Positions 9,528 to 46,478 of a stretch of DNA of 51,601 bases are shown here, piece by piece. The translations under genes and the position numbers were made by a program. The notes under the pieces were generated by a model that searched no databases, had not been told where the DNA came from, and saw only the letters and a list, made by a program, of their open reading frames with translations. The stretch's first letter is position 1. The number at the start of each line of letters is the position of its first letter. The DNA lies in sequence record DRR723986_17763; one strand, 5' to 3'.

Positions 9528-9535
9528 TACCTTTG
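9528..9535 (+). promoter_or_regulatory. Bacteroidota -7 promoter element for rluA-family gene
   Basis: TACCTTTG matches TAnnTTTG. Confidence 0.6.
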
Positions 9536-9544
9536 TACCTGATT

Positions 9545-9622
9545 ATGAAATCGAGCAATATTCTTAAAGTGACAAAGAGAAATGCTTAAATGCCCTGCGA
9601 GATTCCATCTGACAATTGAAAA
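9545..9622 (-). ncRNA. Structured repeated element, copy 1 (candidate ncRNA; compare with Flavo-1 motif)
   Basis: Minus strand reads GTCAGATGGAATCTCGCAG...TTGCTCGATTTCAT; same arms as copies at 43614-43781. Confidence 0.6.
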
Positions 9623-9637
9623 ACAATTATTAAACAG

Positions 9638-10372
9638 ATGAAAAAGAAGCCATTCACGGTTGTCTATGAAGACAACCACCTTTTGATAGTAAATAAAGCT
9701 GCCGGCATACTCGTGCAGGGAGATAAGACTGGGGATAAGACCTTGACGGATTACCTCAAAGAATACATTGCTAAGAAATACGATAAACCAGGCGCAGTTT
9801 TTCTTCATCCTATTCACAGACTGGATCGTCCGGTAAGTGGATTGGTAGCTTTTGCCCGAACTTCCAAAGGCCTGGAGCGCATGATGGAGATTTTCCGCAA
9901 GCGAGAAATTCATAAAGTTTATTGGGCTTTGGTGAAAAGAAAACCGAGAGAGGAAAGCGGTAAGCTGACACATTACCTCGTTAAAGACGAGCAGAAAAAT
10001 GTAGTGACAGCTCATGATCGAGAAGTCCCAGGTTCCCAAAAAGCTGAGTTGAATTACAAGACACTTGGTTTTATGAATGACCACTGGTTGATCGAAGTTC
10101 GACCTGTTTCAGGTCGCCCGCATCAAATCCGGGTACAGCTTGCATCTATGGGTTGCCCGATTCGTGGAGATATCAAGTATGGCTTTGCGAAGCCTAATCC
10201 AGATGCGAGTATCAACCTACATGCATTCAATCTGGTATTTGTTCATCCAATCAAAAAGGAGAAGCTTTACCTAAGAGCTGCTGTGCCAGAGGAGGAGTTC
10301 TGGGAGCAATTCTTGGAATTCGAAACCATCAAGACGAAAGACCAGCATTTAGATAATTCCTTTAGCGGATAA
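9638..10372 (+). CDS. RluA family RNA pseudouridine synthase
   Basis: VNKAAG, HRLDRPVSG, SGRPHQIRVQL, GDIKYG. Confidence 0.93.
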   Translation: MKKKPFTVVYEDNHLLIVNKAAGILVQGDKTGDKTLTDYLKEYIAKKYDKPGAVFLHPIHRLDRPVSGLVAFARTSKGLERMMEIFRKREIHKVYWALVKRKPREESGKLTHYLVKDEQKNVVTAHDREVPGSQKAELNYKTLGFMNDHWLIEVRPVSGRPHQIRVQLASMGCPIRGDIKYGFAKPNPDASINLHAFNLVFVHPIKKEKLYLRAAVPEEEFWEQFLEFETIKTKDQHLDNSFSG

Positions 10373-41425: not shown

Positions 41426-42610
41426 TTAAAGCATCCTACACCAGAACACTTTAAAACCACTTTGGGTTTTGGTTCCAATCAAAAAGTCCTCTCCCCCATC
41501 TTTTACACCAAGTTTCTTTTTCAGGACTTCCGAGCCGCTAGCATAATTCCGTGTAATCACATTTACCTTTCCCGTAGGAAAGAGCTTTTTGATTTCAGCT
41601 TTCTTAGTCTGGACTTCCTGAATTACTTTGAATACTCTTGCAGGGATTTCCGTAGGAACTTCAAATGAAGTGTACAGATGACTATTTGGCTCCAGTTTGC
41701 TCAATCCAAATCGCTCTCCAAAAGTTTTAAATGCTCCTGCTTTCAGTACTCCAGAAAAAGGCTCAATCAAATACTTTTCTACTTCTCTGTATTCAGATTG
41801 GCTACTTTCTTCTTCATTCAAATCAAATGAAAAACTGATTTCTTTCGCTCCTAGATCAATAGCTTCAATTGTCAAAGGGGAAGCAGTTGCTTCTTTCTTC
41901 CAATGCAAAAGCAATTCCTTCACTTCATTTTTTACAGAGATTACCTGAACCTTTTGAATGTCTGGAATCTCAGAGACTGCTTGTGAAATATCAAGCATAG
42001 GAGATACTTTCAGTAGGATAGCATCCGCTTTACTTTTCATCATCTCCCAAGAACTGACCACGTCAGGCTCGCAATCCTGAAGCTTGTAAAGCTTTTGATT
42101 ACCTTTTCCCCTGCGAGCTGGATCAGCGTAAATCAAATCAAACTGCTTTTCCGACTGAGCTAAAAATGCTAAGCCATCACCCTTCACTATGTCGAATTTC
42201 TTTGGGGCTAACACTTCGAGGTTGTGCTCAACAATCTCAGCTAACTCTACTTGCTGTTCGCAGTAAATGGCTTTTTCAAAGGCTGTGCTAAGAAAAAAAC
42301 TGTCTACTCCGAAGCCCCCAGTGAGGTCAATCATGAGTTTTCCGGCTCGGTTTCTAGCTTTGAATTCGGCTGTTAGCTCAGATGAGCTTTGCTCCAAAGA
42401 AATAGAAGCAGGAAAAATCACTTGAGGATTAGATGCCCAAGAAGGAAGTTTCTTGGCTGCTTTTTGTCGTGCAGAGATTTGTTGCACAGCGGCTTTTAGA
42501 TCGAAATCAGTTTTGCCCTGATATCTAAAAAGCAAAAGTGCAGGATCTTCCGTAAGATGATCCTGCACAAATTGTTGGAAGTCGGCCCGATGATATTGGG
42601 TCAAATCCAT
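41426..42610 (-). CDS. Class I SAM-dependent methyltransferase with THUMP-like domain
   Basis: SLEQSSS, DLTGGFGVD, YADPARR, KVSPMLD. Confidence 0.82.
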   Translation of the reverse strand: MDLTQYHRADFQQFVQDHLTEDPALLLFRYQGKTDFDLKAAVQQISARQKAAKKLPSWASNPQVIFPASISLEQSSSELTAEFKARNRAGKLMIDLTGGFGVDSFFLSTAFEKAIYCEQQVELAEIVEHNLEVLAPKKFDIVKGDGLAFLAQSEKQFDLIYADPARRGKGNQKLYKLQDCEPDVVSSWEMMKSKADAILLKVSPMLDISQAVSEIPDIQKVQVISVKNEVKELLLHWKKEATASPLTIEAIDLGAKEISFSFDLNEEESSQSEYREVEKYLIEPFSGVLKAGAFKTFGERFGLSKLEPNSHLYTSFEVPTEIPARVFKVIQEVQTKKAEIKKLFPTGKVNVITRNYASGSEVLKKKLGVKDGGEDFLIGTKTQSGFKVFWCRML

Positions 42611-43599
42611 TAAATCAGGCCGTTTGCGAGCGCGTATTCTGCGATTTGCACGGCGTTGGTTGCAGCGCCTTTTCGGAGGTTGTCAGCTACAATCCACATA
42701 TTTAGAGTATTAGCCTGAGACTCATCTCTTCTCAAGCGGCCTACGAATACCTCGTCTTTTTTATGCGCTGTGATCGGCATTGGATAGATGAAGTTTGCTG
42801 GATCGTCCTGTACGATTACACCAGGAGCTGCAGCCAGCAATTCACGGACTTCCGCCAGGTCAAAGTCTTCTTTGAATTCTACGTTAACTGCTTCAGAGTG
42901 TCCACCCATAGTTGGGATTCTCACTGTGGTGGCAGTTACTTGGATTGTGTCGTCGCTGAAGATTTTCTTAGTTTCCTTGATCATTTTCATTTCTTCCTTC
43001 GTGTAGCCATTTTCTTGGAACACATCGATGTGAGGAAGTACATTCATGTCAATTTTGTGAGGATAGACCATGTCTGCCTTTTCTCCTGCACGCTCTGCCA
43101 TCATCTGATCTACCGCTGCTTTGCCCGTACCGGTCACCGACTGGTAAGTAGACACTACGATTCTTTTGATGCCGTAGCGGCTACGCAAAGGTTCCAGAGC
43201 TAATACCATTTGAATGGTAGAGCAATTTGGGTTTGCGATGATCTTATCTTCTTTGGTCAATTCCTTGGCATTGATCTCAGGAACGATCAGTTTTTTGGTC
43301 GGATCCATTCTCCAAGCTGAAGAATTATCGATGACAATAGTACCTACTTCAGCGAATTTTGGAGCCCACTCTGTAGAAGTGCTTCCGCCTGCTGAAAATA
43401 TAGCCACTTCAGGTTTCAATGAAACAGCTTCTTCAAGCCCAATAACAGTGTAAGGTTTACCTTTATAATCAATCTGTTTACCTACCGATCGCTCGCTGGC
43501 GACTAATAGAAGTTCGTCAAAAGGGAAATTGTGCTCTGCTAGCACCTCTAGGATTTCTGAGCCTACCAAGCCGGTAGCTCCTACCACTGCTAATTTCAT
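42610..43599 (-). CDS. asd: Aspartate-semialdehyde dehydrogenase
   Basis: VVGATGLVG, DNSSAWR, ANPNCST, STYQSVTG, DNLRKGAATN. Confidence 0.97.
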   Translation of the reverse strand: MKLAVVGATGLVGSEILEVLAEHNFPFDELLLVASERSVGKQIDYKGKPYTVIGLEEAVSLKPEVAIFSAGGSTSTEWAPKFAEVGTIVIDNSSAWRMDPTKKLIVPEINAKELTKEDKIIANPNCSTIQMVLALEPLRSRYGIKRIVVSTYQSVTGTGKAAVDQMMAERAGEKADMVYPHKIDMNVLPHIDVFQENGYTKEEMKMIKETKKIFSDDTIQVTATTVRIPTMGGHSEAVNVEFKEDFDLAEVRELLAAAPGVIVQDDPANFIYPMPITAHKKDEVFVGRLRRDESQANTLNMWIVADNLRKGAATNAVQIAEYALANGLI

Positions 43600-43613
43600 A
43601 TGATTAAAATAGT

Positions 43614-43689
43614 TTTTTAAAGGCCATATGGAATCTCGCTGAATTTATAACATCTCGGAGTGTGAGAAATTATCCATGCTCGATTTCAC
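43614..43689 (+). ncRNA. Structured repeated element, copy 2
   Basis: GGCCATATGGAATCTCGCTG...ATGCTCGATTTCAC. Confidence 0.6.
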
Positions 43690-43705
43690 CAGTTTGAAAT
43701 TTGTC

Positions 43706-43781
43706 TTTCAAAGGTCTGATGGGATCACGCAGAATTTTGGTTCAATTCAATTATTGAATCCTTAATCTTGCTCGATTTCAT
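43706..43781 (+). ncRNA. Structured repeated element, copy 3 (tandem with copy 2)
   Basis: GGTCTGATGGGATCACGCAG...TTGCTCGATTTCAT. Confidence 0.6.
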
Positions 43782-43816
43782 CTCTTTAAAAGTAGTTGTT
43801 GAAAATTTTTGAAGCA

Positions 43817-43824
43817 CAAAAGTA
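43817..43824 (-). promoter_or_regulatory. -7 promoter element for asd
   Basis: TACTTTTG on minus strand, about 220 nt upstream of asd start. Confidence 0.55.
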
Positions 43825-43955
43825 AGAGCTACTGATTCATTTTCAGGCATGAGGCTTAAATATTTTGGTGAAAAAGTAATAAAAGCTAACAAAAAGAATA
43901 GTTTGAGATCATTTTGCTATTTATATTTAGACTACATTTTTTATTTGACTGGTTT

Positions 43956-46478
43956 ATGGTTGGCTTATTTTTTATTTGGCAATTGGTCTATACAGCGGTT
44001 TTCCCAGTTGGGCTAGTGTTTGGCTTTGCTGCGACTAATCAGATTCAGCGTTTCGAAACAGAATTTATTATTATTAATCATCCAAATGAGTTCTTGACAG
44101 GATGGTTTGGCAATGAAATCAGGGCGACTTCTTCCCGAATTTATCAGGCAAATGGTTTTGGAAGAAATGGGAGCAGAGCGTTGGCTGTACAACCGATTTC
44201 TACTTTTGATGGGGAAATTATTATCAGACTTTCTCCATCTGAATTCTCTGATCCTCAAGTGCAATTCTGGGCTAGATCTATGAAAAACGGAACAGGTAAT
44301 AGAGCTGCTCAGGTTTATTTCAGTTGGAGTAATAGTTTGGAGGGTGAGTATTCAAGTGCAGAATTATTGGGTGGAGAAGCTGAATTCGCAAATGAAGATC
44401 AGGATTTCAGGAATTTTGAACTTGATATGCCTGATCGCTTTTCTGGGGATGTAGAAATTTATTTAAAATTGGTAATAAAGTATGGCGCAGGTTCTGGCTC
44501 TTGTGCAAAATGGTTGATGGATGACTTTGAGTTTGGGGGATTTGTAGTGGATAAAATACCCCCAAAGATTACAAAGGTTCGTGGATATGATGAGAAACAA
44601 ATTGAAATTCAGTTTGATGAAGCGGTAGATCCAGTGTTTTCTGAGTTTGCCTTTAATTATAGCCTGAATGAAATAGAACCATCATTTGTGAATAGGAAAT
44701 TGGATTCTTTGGTGTATTTAAGTTTTGATGAAAAGCTTGAGCATGGGAAAAGGTATGAGTTGATGGTCTCCAAGGTTCCAGATCTGGAAGGAAACTTTTT
44801 AAAGGACACAGTGATTTCTTTTCAGTTTTTCGATCCGACTTTTATTCCTTCCAAAACGCTTGTGATCAACGAAATTATGCCTGCTCCGAAAGCAGATCTT
44901 GACTTGCCGAATGTGGAGTTTGTGGAAGTTTTTCATGCAGGCGAATATCCTATTAGGCTTGAAGGGTTGTCATTTTCTAACTCAAGATCTACTGTACTAC
45001 TCACGGGTGAATGGATTGATCCTGGGGATTTCTTTCTTTTGGCACCAGAAAGTCATGCTTCACAATTGAACGAATATGGAAGGGTGATTCCACTTAAGAA
45101 TTGGCCAACACTTTTGAATTCAGGCGATCAATTGTGGTTGAAAGATGATCGAGGAAGTGAAATCGACATGATTTCTTATGCAACGGGCAGTTGGGGAGGT
45201 AGCGAATTTGCTGGTGGTGGATATAGTTTGGAAGTTGCTAATCCATTCTATGCCTGTGAGCAAAGTGATTTGCTGAAAGCTTCGGTAGATCCCCTCCGTG
45301 GAACTCCAGGTCGGCAAAATTCAGTATTTGATTTATCTCCTGACGGAAGCTTACCGGCCCTAAATTTATTTGAATTCACTTCTTCTAAGAGTCTGCTTCT
45401 GACCTTCTCAAAACCGATTTTGGCAGGTTTTGATCAATCAAACTTTAAATTTGAACCAAGCTTGGGGATTGATTCTGTCTTCCATTTATCTTCCAAGCAA
45501 ATTCAGATTCTCGTTTCGGAGGAATTCGTCTTGAATAAGATTTATCATCTCAGTATAAATGGAATTACAGATTGCTCGGGGAATGAATATATCCAAGCTG
45601 AGGCTCTGCTACTAGTACTGCCAATCCAAGCTCAGATTGGAGATGTGCTTATCAATGAGCTGCTTTTTAATCCCAAAACAGGCTCACCAAAATTTGTGGA
45701 ACTGGTTAATGTGACGGAGAATTATATGGAAGTCAAGGATTGGATGCTGGCAAATCTCGATGATTCAGGAGAAATAGACCAGGTGAAAAAAATCAGCGAA
45801 GCTTCAGTAATCATTCCACCCCAAGGTTTTCTAGCGATTACCACCAATGTGGATCAATTGAAGCTGGATTTCCCGAAGTCAGCCTTTGGACAAATTATGC
45901 AACTATCTGCACTTCCTAGCTATCCGATTGCTGGCCAAACAGTAGTTTTATTGGATTCTGCAGGGGAGGCTGCTGATTCTTTTTCCTATTCAGAAGATCT
46001 GCATCATCCGCTTTTGAGGGACCCGAAAGGAGTTTCCTTGGAGCGACTTTCTACAGATTCGCCAGCTTCTTTATCCGATAATTGGCATTCTGCCTCAGCT
46101 ATTGAAGAATATGCAACACCAGGCCGAAGGAATTCTCAGGTGATTTTGGGTGAGTTCGAAGGAGAATTGATTCAAATTGAGCCTGAAGTTTTTGATCCAG
46201 AAGGAAGTAATGGTAATACCTTTACGACTATTAAATATGAACTTGATCAAGCTGGATGGATAGGGAATTTTAGGGTTTACTCTACAGCTGGTCAGTTGAT
46301 GCAGGTATTGGCTCAAAATGAAATGCTAGGTACCTCAGGATTATTTACTTGGTCTGGTACTGACAGTCAAGGAAGGGTAGTGAGGCCAGGATATTATGTG
46401 CTTTTAGTAGAATTATATGACTTATCCGGTCAGATAAGGACAATTCGCAAAACTATGGTTGTGGCAACAAAACTTTAA
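43956..46478 (+). CDS. Lamin-tail-domain / Ig-like repeat protein with T9SS-type C-terminal domain
   Basis: Two INE(I/L)..P..(E/K)FVE LTD units, TPGRxNS repeats, C-terminal FDPEG..FTWSG..GYY; start uncertain (43914 or 43956). Confidence 0.8.
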   Translation: MVGLFFIWQLVYTAVFPVGLVFGFAATNQIQRFETEFIIINHPNEFLTGWFGNEIRATSSRIYQANGFGRNGSRALAVQPISTFDGEIIIRLSPSEFSDPQVQFWARSMKNGTGNRAAQVYFSWSNSLEGEYSSAELLGGEAEFANEDQDFRNFELDMPDRFSGDVEIYLKLVIKYGAGSGSCAKWLMDDFEFGGFVVDKIPPKITKVRGYDEKQIEIQFDEAVDPVFSEFAFNYSLNEIEPSFVNRKLDSLVYLSFDEKLEHGKRYELMVSKVPDLEGNFLKDTVISFQFFDPTFIPSKTLVINEIMPAPKADLDLPNVEFVEVFHAGEYPIRLEGLSFSNSRSTVLLTGEWIDPGDFFLLAPESHASQLNEYGRVIPLKNWPTLLNSGDQLWLKDDRGSEIDMISYATGSWGGSEFAGGGYSLEVANPFYACEQSDLLKASVDPLRGTPGRQNSVFDLSPDGSLPALNLFEFTSSKSLLLTFSKPILAGFDQSNFKFEPSLGIDSVFHLSSKQIQILVSEEFVLNKIYHLSINGITDCSGNEYIQAEALLLVLPIQAQIGDVLINELLFNPKTGSPKFVELVNVTENYMEVKDWMLANLDDSGEIDQVKKISEASVIIPPQGFLAITTNVDQLKLDFPKSAFGQIMQLSALPSYPIAGQTVVLLDSAGEAADSFSYSEDLHHPLLRDPKGVSLERLSTDSPASLSDNWHSASAIEEYATPGRRNSQVILGEFEGELIQIEPEVFDPEGSNGNTFTTIKYELDQAGWIGNFRVYSTAGQLMQVLAQNEMLGTSGLFTWSGTDSQGRVVRPGYYVLLVELYDLSGQIRTIRKTMVVATKL

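Follow-up and report, generated by a model that had tools for sequence, protein, structure and literature searches.

Tandem repeats in the asd leader as likely members of a mobile, start-codon-occupying repeat family of the Cyclobacteriaceae

Two short structured repeats stand head to tail in the leader of the asd gene in the stretch of DNA analysed here, which comprises the 51,601 nucleotides of sequence record DRR723986_17763 and is referred to as the window. These repeats are probably, at a likelihood that we would put at about 75%, two units of a non-autonomous and mobile interspersed repeat family of the Cyclobacteriaceae, which occupies start codons. A unit sits between a promoter and an ATGAA start, in the sense orientation, and units stack head to tail. 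For this DNA, it had already been proposed that a structured element is present in multiple copies and lies in housekeeping-gene leaders, and this proposal is supported; among the possible natures that were offered for it, the mobile unit is the one favoured by the evidence. Within the library searched, the literature gave no account of this repeat family, nor of repeats or MITEs from Algoriphagus or the Cyclobacteriaceae.

The first-pass annotation had placed two structured copies in the asd leader and a third one near position 9545, and on this a pattern search and a covariance model agree. The consensus pattern matches the window exactly three times, at 43628-43688 (+), 43719-43780 (+) and 9546-9608 (-), the two matches on the asd side being spaced 91 bases apart, and it finds no match in 100 dinucleotide shuffles of the window. 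When every window position is scored with a covariance model derived from seven copies, the same three sites are returned, with E values of 6.6e-24, 6.4e-22 and 9.7e-13, the next best position having an E value of 0.72. On the strand of the gene, the unit is the reverse complement of the consensus first proposed, and the full units are slightly longer than the span first noted (43614..43781). The features of the window are as follows.

43690..43781, minus strand: distal unit of the asd tandem pair, 92 bases (pattern and covariance model)
43600..43689, minus strand: proximal unit of the asd tandem pair, 90 bases (pattern and covariance model)
9545..9637, plus strand: third unit, 93 bases, before the rluA-family gene (pattern and covariance model)
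43597..43630, minus strand: start-codon helix of the proximal unit, CATATG (43630-43625) with CAT (43602-43600) and the asd ATG (43599-43597)
42610..43599, minus strand: asd (aspartate-semialdehyde dehydrogenase), 329 aa, starting with ATGAAAT
43817..43824, minus strand: asd promoter box TAnnTTTG, a Bacteroidota-type -7 box (from the sequence)
9528..9535, plus strand: -7 promoter box of the rluA-family gene (from the alignment of filled and empty sites)

Head to tail, the asd pair measures 182 bases and fills the gap from the promoter box to the ATG (43599 to 43781). In the distal unit, the 5' box ATGAAATC lies at 43781-43774, the 3' arm GATCCCAT at 43726-43719 and the A-rich tail at 43718-43690, and the last CTG adjoins the GTG that opens the proximal unit. 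The proximal unit has its 5' box GTGAAATC at 43689-43682, its 3' arm GATTCCAT at 43635-43628 and its A-rich tail at 43627-43600, with the terminal CAT directly 5' of the asd ATG. In the third unit, the 5' box is found at 9545-9552 and the 3' arm ends at 9608, followed by the helix CATCTG...CAGATG and the ATG of the rluA-family gene at 9638. We take the gene behind the tandem pair to be asd, as its product fits the N-terminus of aspartate-semialdehyde dehydrogenase known to us, and the rluA-family gene encodes a pseudouridine synthase, whose orthologue in the nearest genome carries the Pfam domain PseudoU_synth_2. TAnnTTTG is the -7 promoter consensus of the Bacteroidota, and it is present at 43817-43824 on the minus strand, where the asd promoter element had been placed; most asd loci compared, filled and empty alike, retain this box together with the sequence around it. 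A frame of 854 aa (43914-46478, plus strand) runs divergently from asd across the common intergenic region. A comparison with Rfam had been suggested, with Flavo-1 as the first candidate. When run over the whole window with Rfam 15, it matched no family at the gathering score, Flavo-1 included, and the stretch 43500-44000 gave four weak matches at E<=10, none near the gathering score and two of them touching the units.

The genome nearest to the window, G001 (genomes are given by number), has 75% of sampled words in common with it. This genome holds 80 covariance-model matches at E<=1, and 71 (70 distinct) at E<=0.001. The family is present in 26 of the 37 genomes of the genus, many of which have at least about 61 matches; genomes of 2-3 Mb mostly have none. 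In a survey of one genome per genus, at a completeness of at least 90%, 25 of the 81 sampled genera of the bacterial family carry the element, six of them at or near the scoring cap with 40-46 matches, and in other families of the order two of 24 genomes gave one weak match each. With the exact-arm pattern and one genome per species, at least 123 stretches were obtained, the estimate being about 2200. Their titles mostly name Algoriphagus, and also Lunatibacter, Lunatimonas, Cyclobacterium, Aquiflexum, Anditalea and other Cyclobacteriaceae; mis-binning probably accounts for a small number of unexpected MAG labels among them. Pairwise identity among the G001 copies has a maximum of 89% and a median of 54%, so no recent burst is visible, and the asd units of the window find their best G001 match at 79-84%, with no near-identical twin. 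Separately, a 10-base motif of the 3' arm occurs four times on one strand, with a period of 321 bases, at G001:C1:969078-970050; this is probably a tandem-repeat coding region that is unrelated to the element.

On the gene strand, a unit opens with ATGAAATC, GA and GCA; behind a variable stretch it continues with TGC, GA and GATTCCAT, and about 28 A-rich bases then lead up to the ATG. Structurally, it is made of two modules. The first is a hairpin of ATGAAATC with GATTCCAT, which contains a fixed A.C mismatch, a GA/GA internal loop and a tip that is free to vary, and whose ATGAAATC box resembles a gene start. The second is the A-rich tail of about 28 bases, in which the first NTG pairs with the last CAN', lengthening the helix that the ATG of the gene forms with the CAT of GATTCCAT. 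The hairpin stem and this start-codon helix are mutually exclusive because the CAT is common to both. The asymmetry of G.U versus A.C and the GA/GA positions are as originally described: the outer stem has its A.C position in 64 of the 70 G001 copies, and the GA/GA loop is intact in 55 of them. In nearly all copies, the mismatches between the two arms fall on the same three positions, and the core between them has a mean identity of 46%, although the copies were found by those same arms and the comparison of arms with core is biased to that extent. Within the unit, bases 1-13 and about 50-62 make up the inverted repeat. A partner of the right end (the A-rich tail and CAN') was looked for at the left end of the unit and is absent there. 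In G024, a divergent subfamily has plain pairs in place of the GA/GA loop and retains the A.C.

The start-codon helix, CATNTG...CAN'ATG, is 91% paired over the 70 G001 copies. Its middle pair is G-C in 22 copies, A-U in 15 and C-G in 11, and the covariation score is 0.173 versus 0.085 in shuffles, with none of 500 shuffles reaching 0.173. Sliding the helix partner abolishes this covariation. A set of 163 strict copies drawn from many genomes has A-T as the middle pair in 45, C-G in 43 and G-C in 48, with 27 non-pairs. Three lineages standing behind the three classes were considered as an explanation and rejected: the class of the middle pair is untied to the core and only faintly tied to the tail (identity of 0.654 versus 0.625; 1 of 300 permutations), and the classes are thus not just three lineages.

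Several copies depart from this general plan. Mini copies, with both boxes and the tail and without the variable core, occur at the asd locus of G029 (L043) and in G001 (L198, L210, L225, L229, L234), and look like a deletion of the hairpin tip between GAGC and GCGAG repeats. A smaller second hairpin repeat, TCCCGA...TCGGGA followed by CAGG, with a variable loop, lies at one fixed point in the GATTCCAT box of several units. A third hairpin repeat, CCTGCC...GGCAG followed by ACAGG, lies just 3' of the 5' GAGC. The loci concerned are in G001 (L206, L209, L216, L218, L231) and at the rluA genes of G025, G036, G030 and G022 (L236, L240, L241 and L253). Both of these smaller hairpin repeats look like nested mini-insertions with a site preference of their own.

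The placement of the units is strict. All copies examined are on the sense strand of the downstream gene and directly upstream of a start codon, and every unit ends precisely at an ATG with AA behind it. This terminal ATG opens a frame of at least 80 aa (or one that is open to the locus end) in 63 of the 70 G001 copies, and in 3 further copies the frames are of 72-77 aa; by comparison, other ATGAA sites in the same G001 loci open such frames in 141 of 557 cases. Positions 4, 5 and 6 after the ATG are A in 128, 125 and 111, respectively, of 130 non-tandem strict copies. Pfam hits downstream of the G001 copies, from a scan of 62 of the 66 frames of at least 60 aa (four small frames of 72-95 aa being omitted), include queA, dnaN, pfk, trpF, rsmB, L25, dps, divIVA, ubiA, ompH, miaB, lacI, rimK and four susD, among others, and the domains often begin at residues 1-5 of the proteins. 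The downstream genes are functionally unrelated and form no regulon, and the terminal ATG is the real start. An exception is trpE in G001, where the unit ends on ATGAAAAAATAA and the trpE start lies 19 bases further on; the unit therefore abuts the sequence ATGAA, and not the start codon as such. Upstream of this trpE, at L007:1352-1487, there is a tryptophan leader with a short frame that contains three consecutive Trp codons, followed by a terminator hairpin. This leader scores 42 bits against the Rfam family Bacteroid-trp (gathering score 49, E 0.0015), and the repeat unit is wedged between the Trp attenuator and trpE. The tandem state is common, as 28 of the 163 strict copies have another unit behind them. 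The tandem arrangement in the asd leader had been likened to cooperative regulatory RNAs, but in a family in which pairs are common, it does not indicate cooperative ligand binding.

Empty and filled versions of the same sites are available for comparison. In G001, the asd locus has the same promoter and flanks as the window (100% and 97% identical), and the flank runs straight into ATGAAATTAGCA; relative to it, the window has exactly 182 extra bases, with ATGAAAT at both ends. The asd site is also empty in G036, G030, G025, G035, G026 and others, carries a tandem pair in G014 and G034 and a mini copy without the variable core in G029, and holds a decayed copy in four more distant species. A riboswitch or another dedicated asd leader was rejected on these grounds, as the asd promoter leads straight into the ATG in G001 and many further species, and on the 46% identity of the core. 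An asd-specific or amino-acid-responsive leader likewise finds no support, given that G001 has the promoter without the element and that the genes served are unrelated. The rluA site is filled, exactly before ATGAAAAAG, in the window, G001, G025, G029, G034, G014, G036 and G030, and is empty in many species, in which the promoter box lies 11 bases from the ATG. G022 and G024 carry different copies of their own at this site, and their relatives are empty.

The ends of the insertions are equally regular. At the rluA site, ATGAAA is found at both ends when the site is filled and once when it is empty, and the same holds at asd with ATGAAAT. The left copy is always ATGAAATC, whatever sequence follows the ATGAA of the gene. 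As far as the sequences can tell, these end repeats would fit a 5-base duplication of a fixed target and a box borne by the element equally well. From the filled and empty patterns at asd and rluA, it follows that gain and loss are precise and recurrent; slippage between the ATGAA(A) repeats would offer an easy route to precise loss. Since the asd units have no twin in G001 and identity among copies is low, the difference at asd is equally likely to be a recent precise loss in G001 or a gain in the lineage of the window. The asd pairs of the window, G014 and G034 are 65-78% identical in all pairings, a range within which identity does not decide on orthology. It had been said that patchy presence and random orientation would recast the element as a simple REP-like repeat. 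The presence is indeed patchy, but the orientation is fixed, so this label is too weak.

Modules can also be exchanged. At the rluA site, a new hairpin stands before the same tail in G014, and a new tail stands behind the same hairpin in G034. Such swaps would fit an insertion beside an existing unit, followed by a deletion between conserved boxes, and a target at the left end of each unit would also explain the tandem pairs. Two species have a nested insertion at the rluA site that has removed the GATTCCAT box. Without the repeat, the native mRNA of the rluA-family gene would be leaderless or nearly so (window 9528-9640, L242-L258), and with the repeat its leader is roughly 100 bases long.

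Because the promoters lie upstream of the insertion points, transcription would include the unit in the leader of the mRNA, and the tail of the unit would replace the native sequence before the start codon. A search for RNA runs yielded two, with 0.06 and 0.05 of the sampled words, shares too small to bear on the leader. In folding predictions for 56 G001 leaders, the start codon has an unpaired probability of 0.25, versus 0.50 in shuffled leaders, and the best folds contain the start-codon helix in 30 and the outer stem in 10 of the 56. This predicted pairing fits a regulatory and a neutral role alike. The effect on the host gene is expected to be small, with the start codon kept and, according to the fold models, partly paired. 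An internal frame coupled to the gene in the manner of the mycobacterial MIRUs was considered as a design principle and rejected. Of 143 copies, 35 have a frame that leads from the first ATG of the unit to the TGA of ATGA; in the others, this frame meets an earlier stop (94 copies, in 36 of them within 10 bases of the start), is in frame without a stop (10) or passes the end out of frame (4). When any ATG is allowed, a frame ending at this TGA is found in 65 of 156 copies, the other two frames giving 36 and 6 of 156. Unit lengths fall into all classes modulo 3 (35, 59 and 48 of 142), and the coupling frame is only a partial feature.

It is conceivable, though we consider it unlikely, that the family is instead a sense-strand translational switch that has spread. 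The start codon would then be free when GATTCCAT pairs with the 5' box, and hidden when GATTCCAT pairs with the start codon itself, and a factor that binds the GA/GA hairpin, or temperature, would set the balance, so that some 70 genes would be controlled together. The two pairings are mutually exclusive by sequence, the start-codon helix covaries, and the start is predicted to be more paired than in shuffled leaders. The arms and the GA/GA loop (55/70) are kept around a core of low identity, and the wobble changes, excluding the fixed A.C, lean towards the sense strand, with 42 of sense type versus 22 of antisense type (p=0.017). However, this excess could stem from strand-biased mutation, and the genes served are without a common function. 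The asd gene of G001 and the rluA gene of many species do without the element, the number of copies ranges from 0 to at least 61 within one genus, and in two species the nested insertion at rluA removes the GATTCCAT box. We know of no factor that binds the hairpin of the unit. Against the mobile reading, the conserved arms beside a free core could also reflect selection on resident copies, and thus a function for the host.

A mobile element of this kind would have to recognise its target. Two partners are available to the central GATTCCAT box, the ATGAAATC at the left end of its own unit and the ATGAA on the right, from which we infer a pairing-guided recognition of both junctions on a single strand. 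In the proposed mechanism, this pairing would read the target and bring the two junctions together for a single-stranded cut-and-join reaction guided by base pairing, a logic known from IS200/IS605 elements and REP sequences. A more detailed proposal, which we put forward tentatively and hold to be possible rather than probable, is that of a single-strand element that homes to start codons by pairing. In this proposal, an internal TTCCAT guide would read the ATGAA both at the target and at the left end of the element, and the fixed A.C mismatch would keep the complementary strand from bearing a second target. The element would bring a replacement leader, which would keep the gene that was hit expressed, and the mover would act in trans, as a domesticated Y1-type or a novel enzyme.

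Candidates for the mover were sought among the genomes. With exact half-sites, a search of G001 and G036 for an autonomous element with the same ends gave, one orphan pair aside, no plausible pair at the kb scale. The half-sites of the two genomes pair at 44-112 bases, with 50 such pairs in G036; one further pair spans 164 bases, and the orphan pair, in G036, is 7.3 kb apart. Among 11 5' halves of G001 that lack a partner, 10 fall within ordinary coding DNA, as by chance, and one is a decayed copy. A classical MITE derived from a DDE element was rejected in view of the lack of terminal inverted repeats at both ends and of a transposase-encoding full-length element in G001 and G036. The Y1 (HUH) domain is present in 25 of 25 element-bearing genera versus 26 of 56 without the element (p=6e-7, a value that overstates the association, as the genomes are related). 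As a control, IS110 was found in 13 of 25 versus 22 of 56 genera; it shows no association across genera, is lacking in G001, and was rejected as a driver. The Y1 transposase was also set aside as the driver and is kept as a lead only: G022, with 61 copies or more, gave no Y1 match, Y1 is present in genomes of the genus that are free of the element, and none of the Y1 genes of G001 adjoins a copy. G001 has five RAYT-like Y1 genes of 148-169 aa (L270-L274), each flanked on both sides by GC-rich hairpin repeats of its own, so that several separate REP-like systems coexist in this genome; the present element was looked for beside these five genes and found beside none.

An antisense RNA, or a fold of the antisense strand that acts on the leaders of housekeeping genes, had been proposed in the first-pass annotation, and we now regard it as very improbable. 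Its basis is the fixed stem position, at which 64 of 70 copies show A.C when read on the sense strand and G.U when read on the other, with a second such position in the distal asd unit, and a single-stranded DNA form of the antisense strand is possible during transposition. The other strand indicators point the opposite way or nowhere. The GA/GA loop reads UC/CU on the antisense strand, and this loop and the remaining wobble changes favour the sense strand, strand-biased mutation being a possible contributor to the wobble excess. RNA folding of the two asd units of the window gives -14.4 and -23.4 kcal/mol for sense, and -12.3 and -25.7 kcal/mol for antisense, with no consistent preference. 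No antisense promoter was identified, the antisense strand of the tail offering by eye only a near-match to the -7 box, and an antisense regulator that acts in trans would not need the fixed position and orientation at gene starts. A double-stranded DNA site, such as an operator or a nucleoid-protein site before many genes, is the least probable reading of all: it would suit the conserved inverted repeats near promoters, but a symmetric dimer site would not call for the differences that recur at three positions between the arms, the small helix has a middle pair that is not fixed but covaries, and the units lie downstream of the promoter boxes and are missing from orthologous promoters.

The mobile repeat family is thus of interest beyond the asd leader. 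In the literature searched, only the mycobacterial MIRUs were noted as repeats that settle on start codons, and their mechanism is unexplained. The present family would be an independent case, with clean empty and filled sites, a fixed target of five bases and a box that can pair with both junctions. It occurs in the Bacteroidota, a phylum in which translation is initiated without Shine-Dalgarno pairing. Two questions become testable with it, namely by what means gene starts are located by a mobile element, and how a gene copes with a leader that has grown by 90-180 bases. For annotation, the family should be masked or modelled in the Cyclobacteriaceae because it mimics a structured regulatory RNA before housekeeping genes. 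The tail of the unit may be usable as a portable initiation region for expression work in the Bacteroidota. If the homing proposal were true, the element would represent a natural, sequence-programmable system for precise DNA insertion at gene starts, and its units would give the hosts a mobile layer of 5' leaders, which in G001 would cover about 70 genes.

Among known systems, RNA thermometers and the expression platforms of riboswitches hide a start codon in a helix. The present units resemble them in that two pairings exclude each other and that the start codon takes part in one of these, but their core is variable, with no conserved ligand pocket, they serve no coherent regulon, and they are not conserved at orthologues. 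Classical MITEs (Correia, ERIC, BOX) are small and abundant, are often transcribed together with their neighbours and are able to fold; they have terminal inverted repeats, produce short duplications of variable sequence and insert in either orientation. Here, in contrast, there is no inverted repeat at the right end, ATGAA is the flanking repeat in all cases, and the orientation is fixed. The REP/REPIN elements with their RAYTs are closer, as short, geneless hairpins in high copy in genomes with Y1 (HUH) enzymes. REPs are mostly found after genes and in both orientations, whereas the present element lies before genes in a single orientation, and the Y1 genes of G001 are flanked by other repeats.

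Elements of the IS200/IS605 group insert in an oriented manner beside a fixed target of 4-5 bases, without a true duplication. For IS608, parts of two sources describe a transposase that binds subterminal imperfect hairpins, and cleavage and target sites that are read by base pairing with short internal sequences (PMC3201880, PMC5934647). The present element shares the oriented insertion, has a fixed ATGAA at both junctions and contains an internal box that is pairable with either junction. It differs in having a single large hairpin, whose foot is the left end, and in that no transposase-bearing element with the same ends was found in G001 or G036. The MIRUs, in the portion of a 2025 review that concerns them (PMC12548453), appear to be mobile and to insert at start codons, with an internal frame that ends 4 bases into the start of the gene. 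Like them, the present units are short repeats, often in tandem, that run in the direction of the neighbouring gene, here in the sense orientation at ATGAA starts. Unlike in MIRUs, the coupling frame is not general, and the present element has a conserved hairpin and a start-codon helix, neither of which is known to us from MIRUs. The two belong to different phyla and are likened by description, so that any kinship is one of analogy only. By this analogy, MIRUs are the closest known counterpart of the repeats in the asd leader, and the mechanism may be nearest to that of REPs or of single-strand elements of the IS200/IS605 type.
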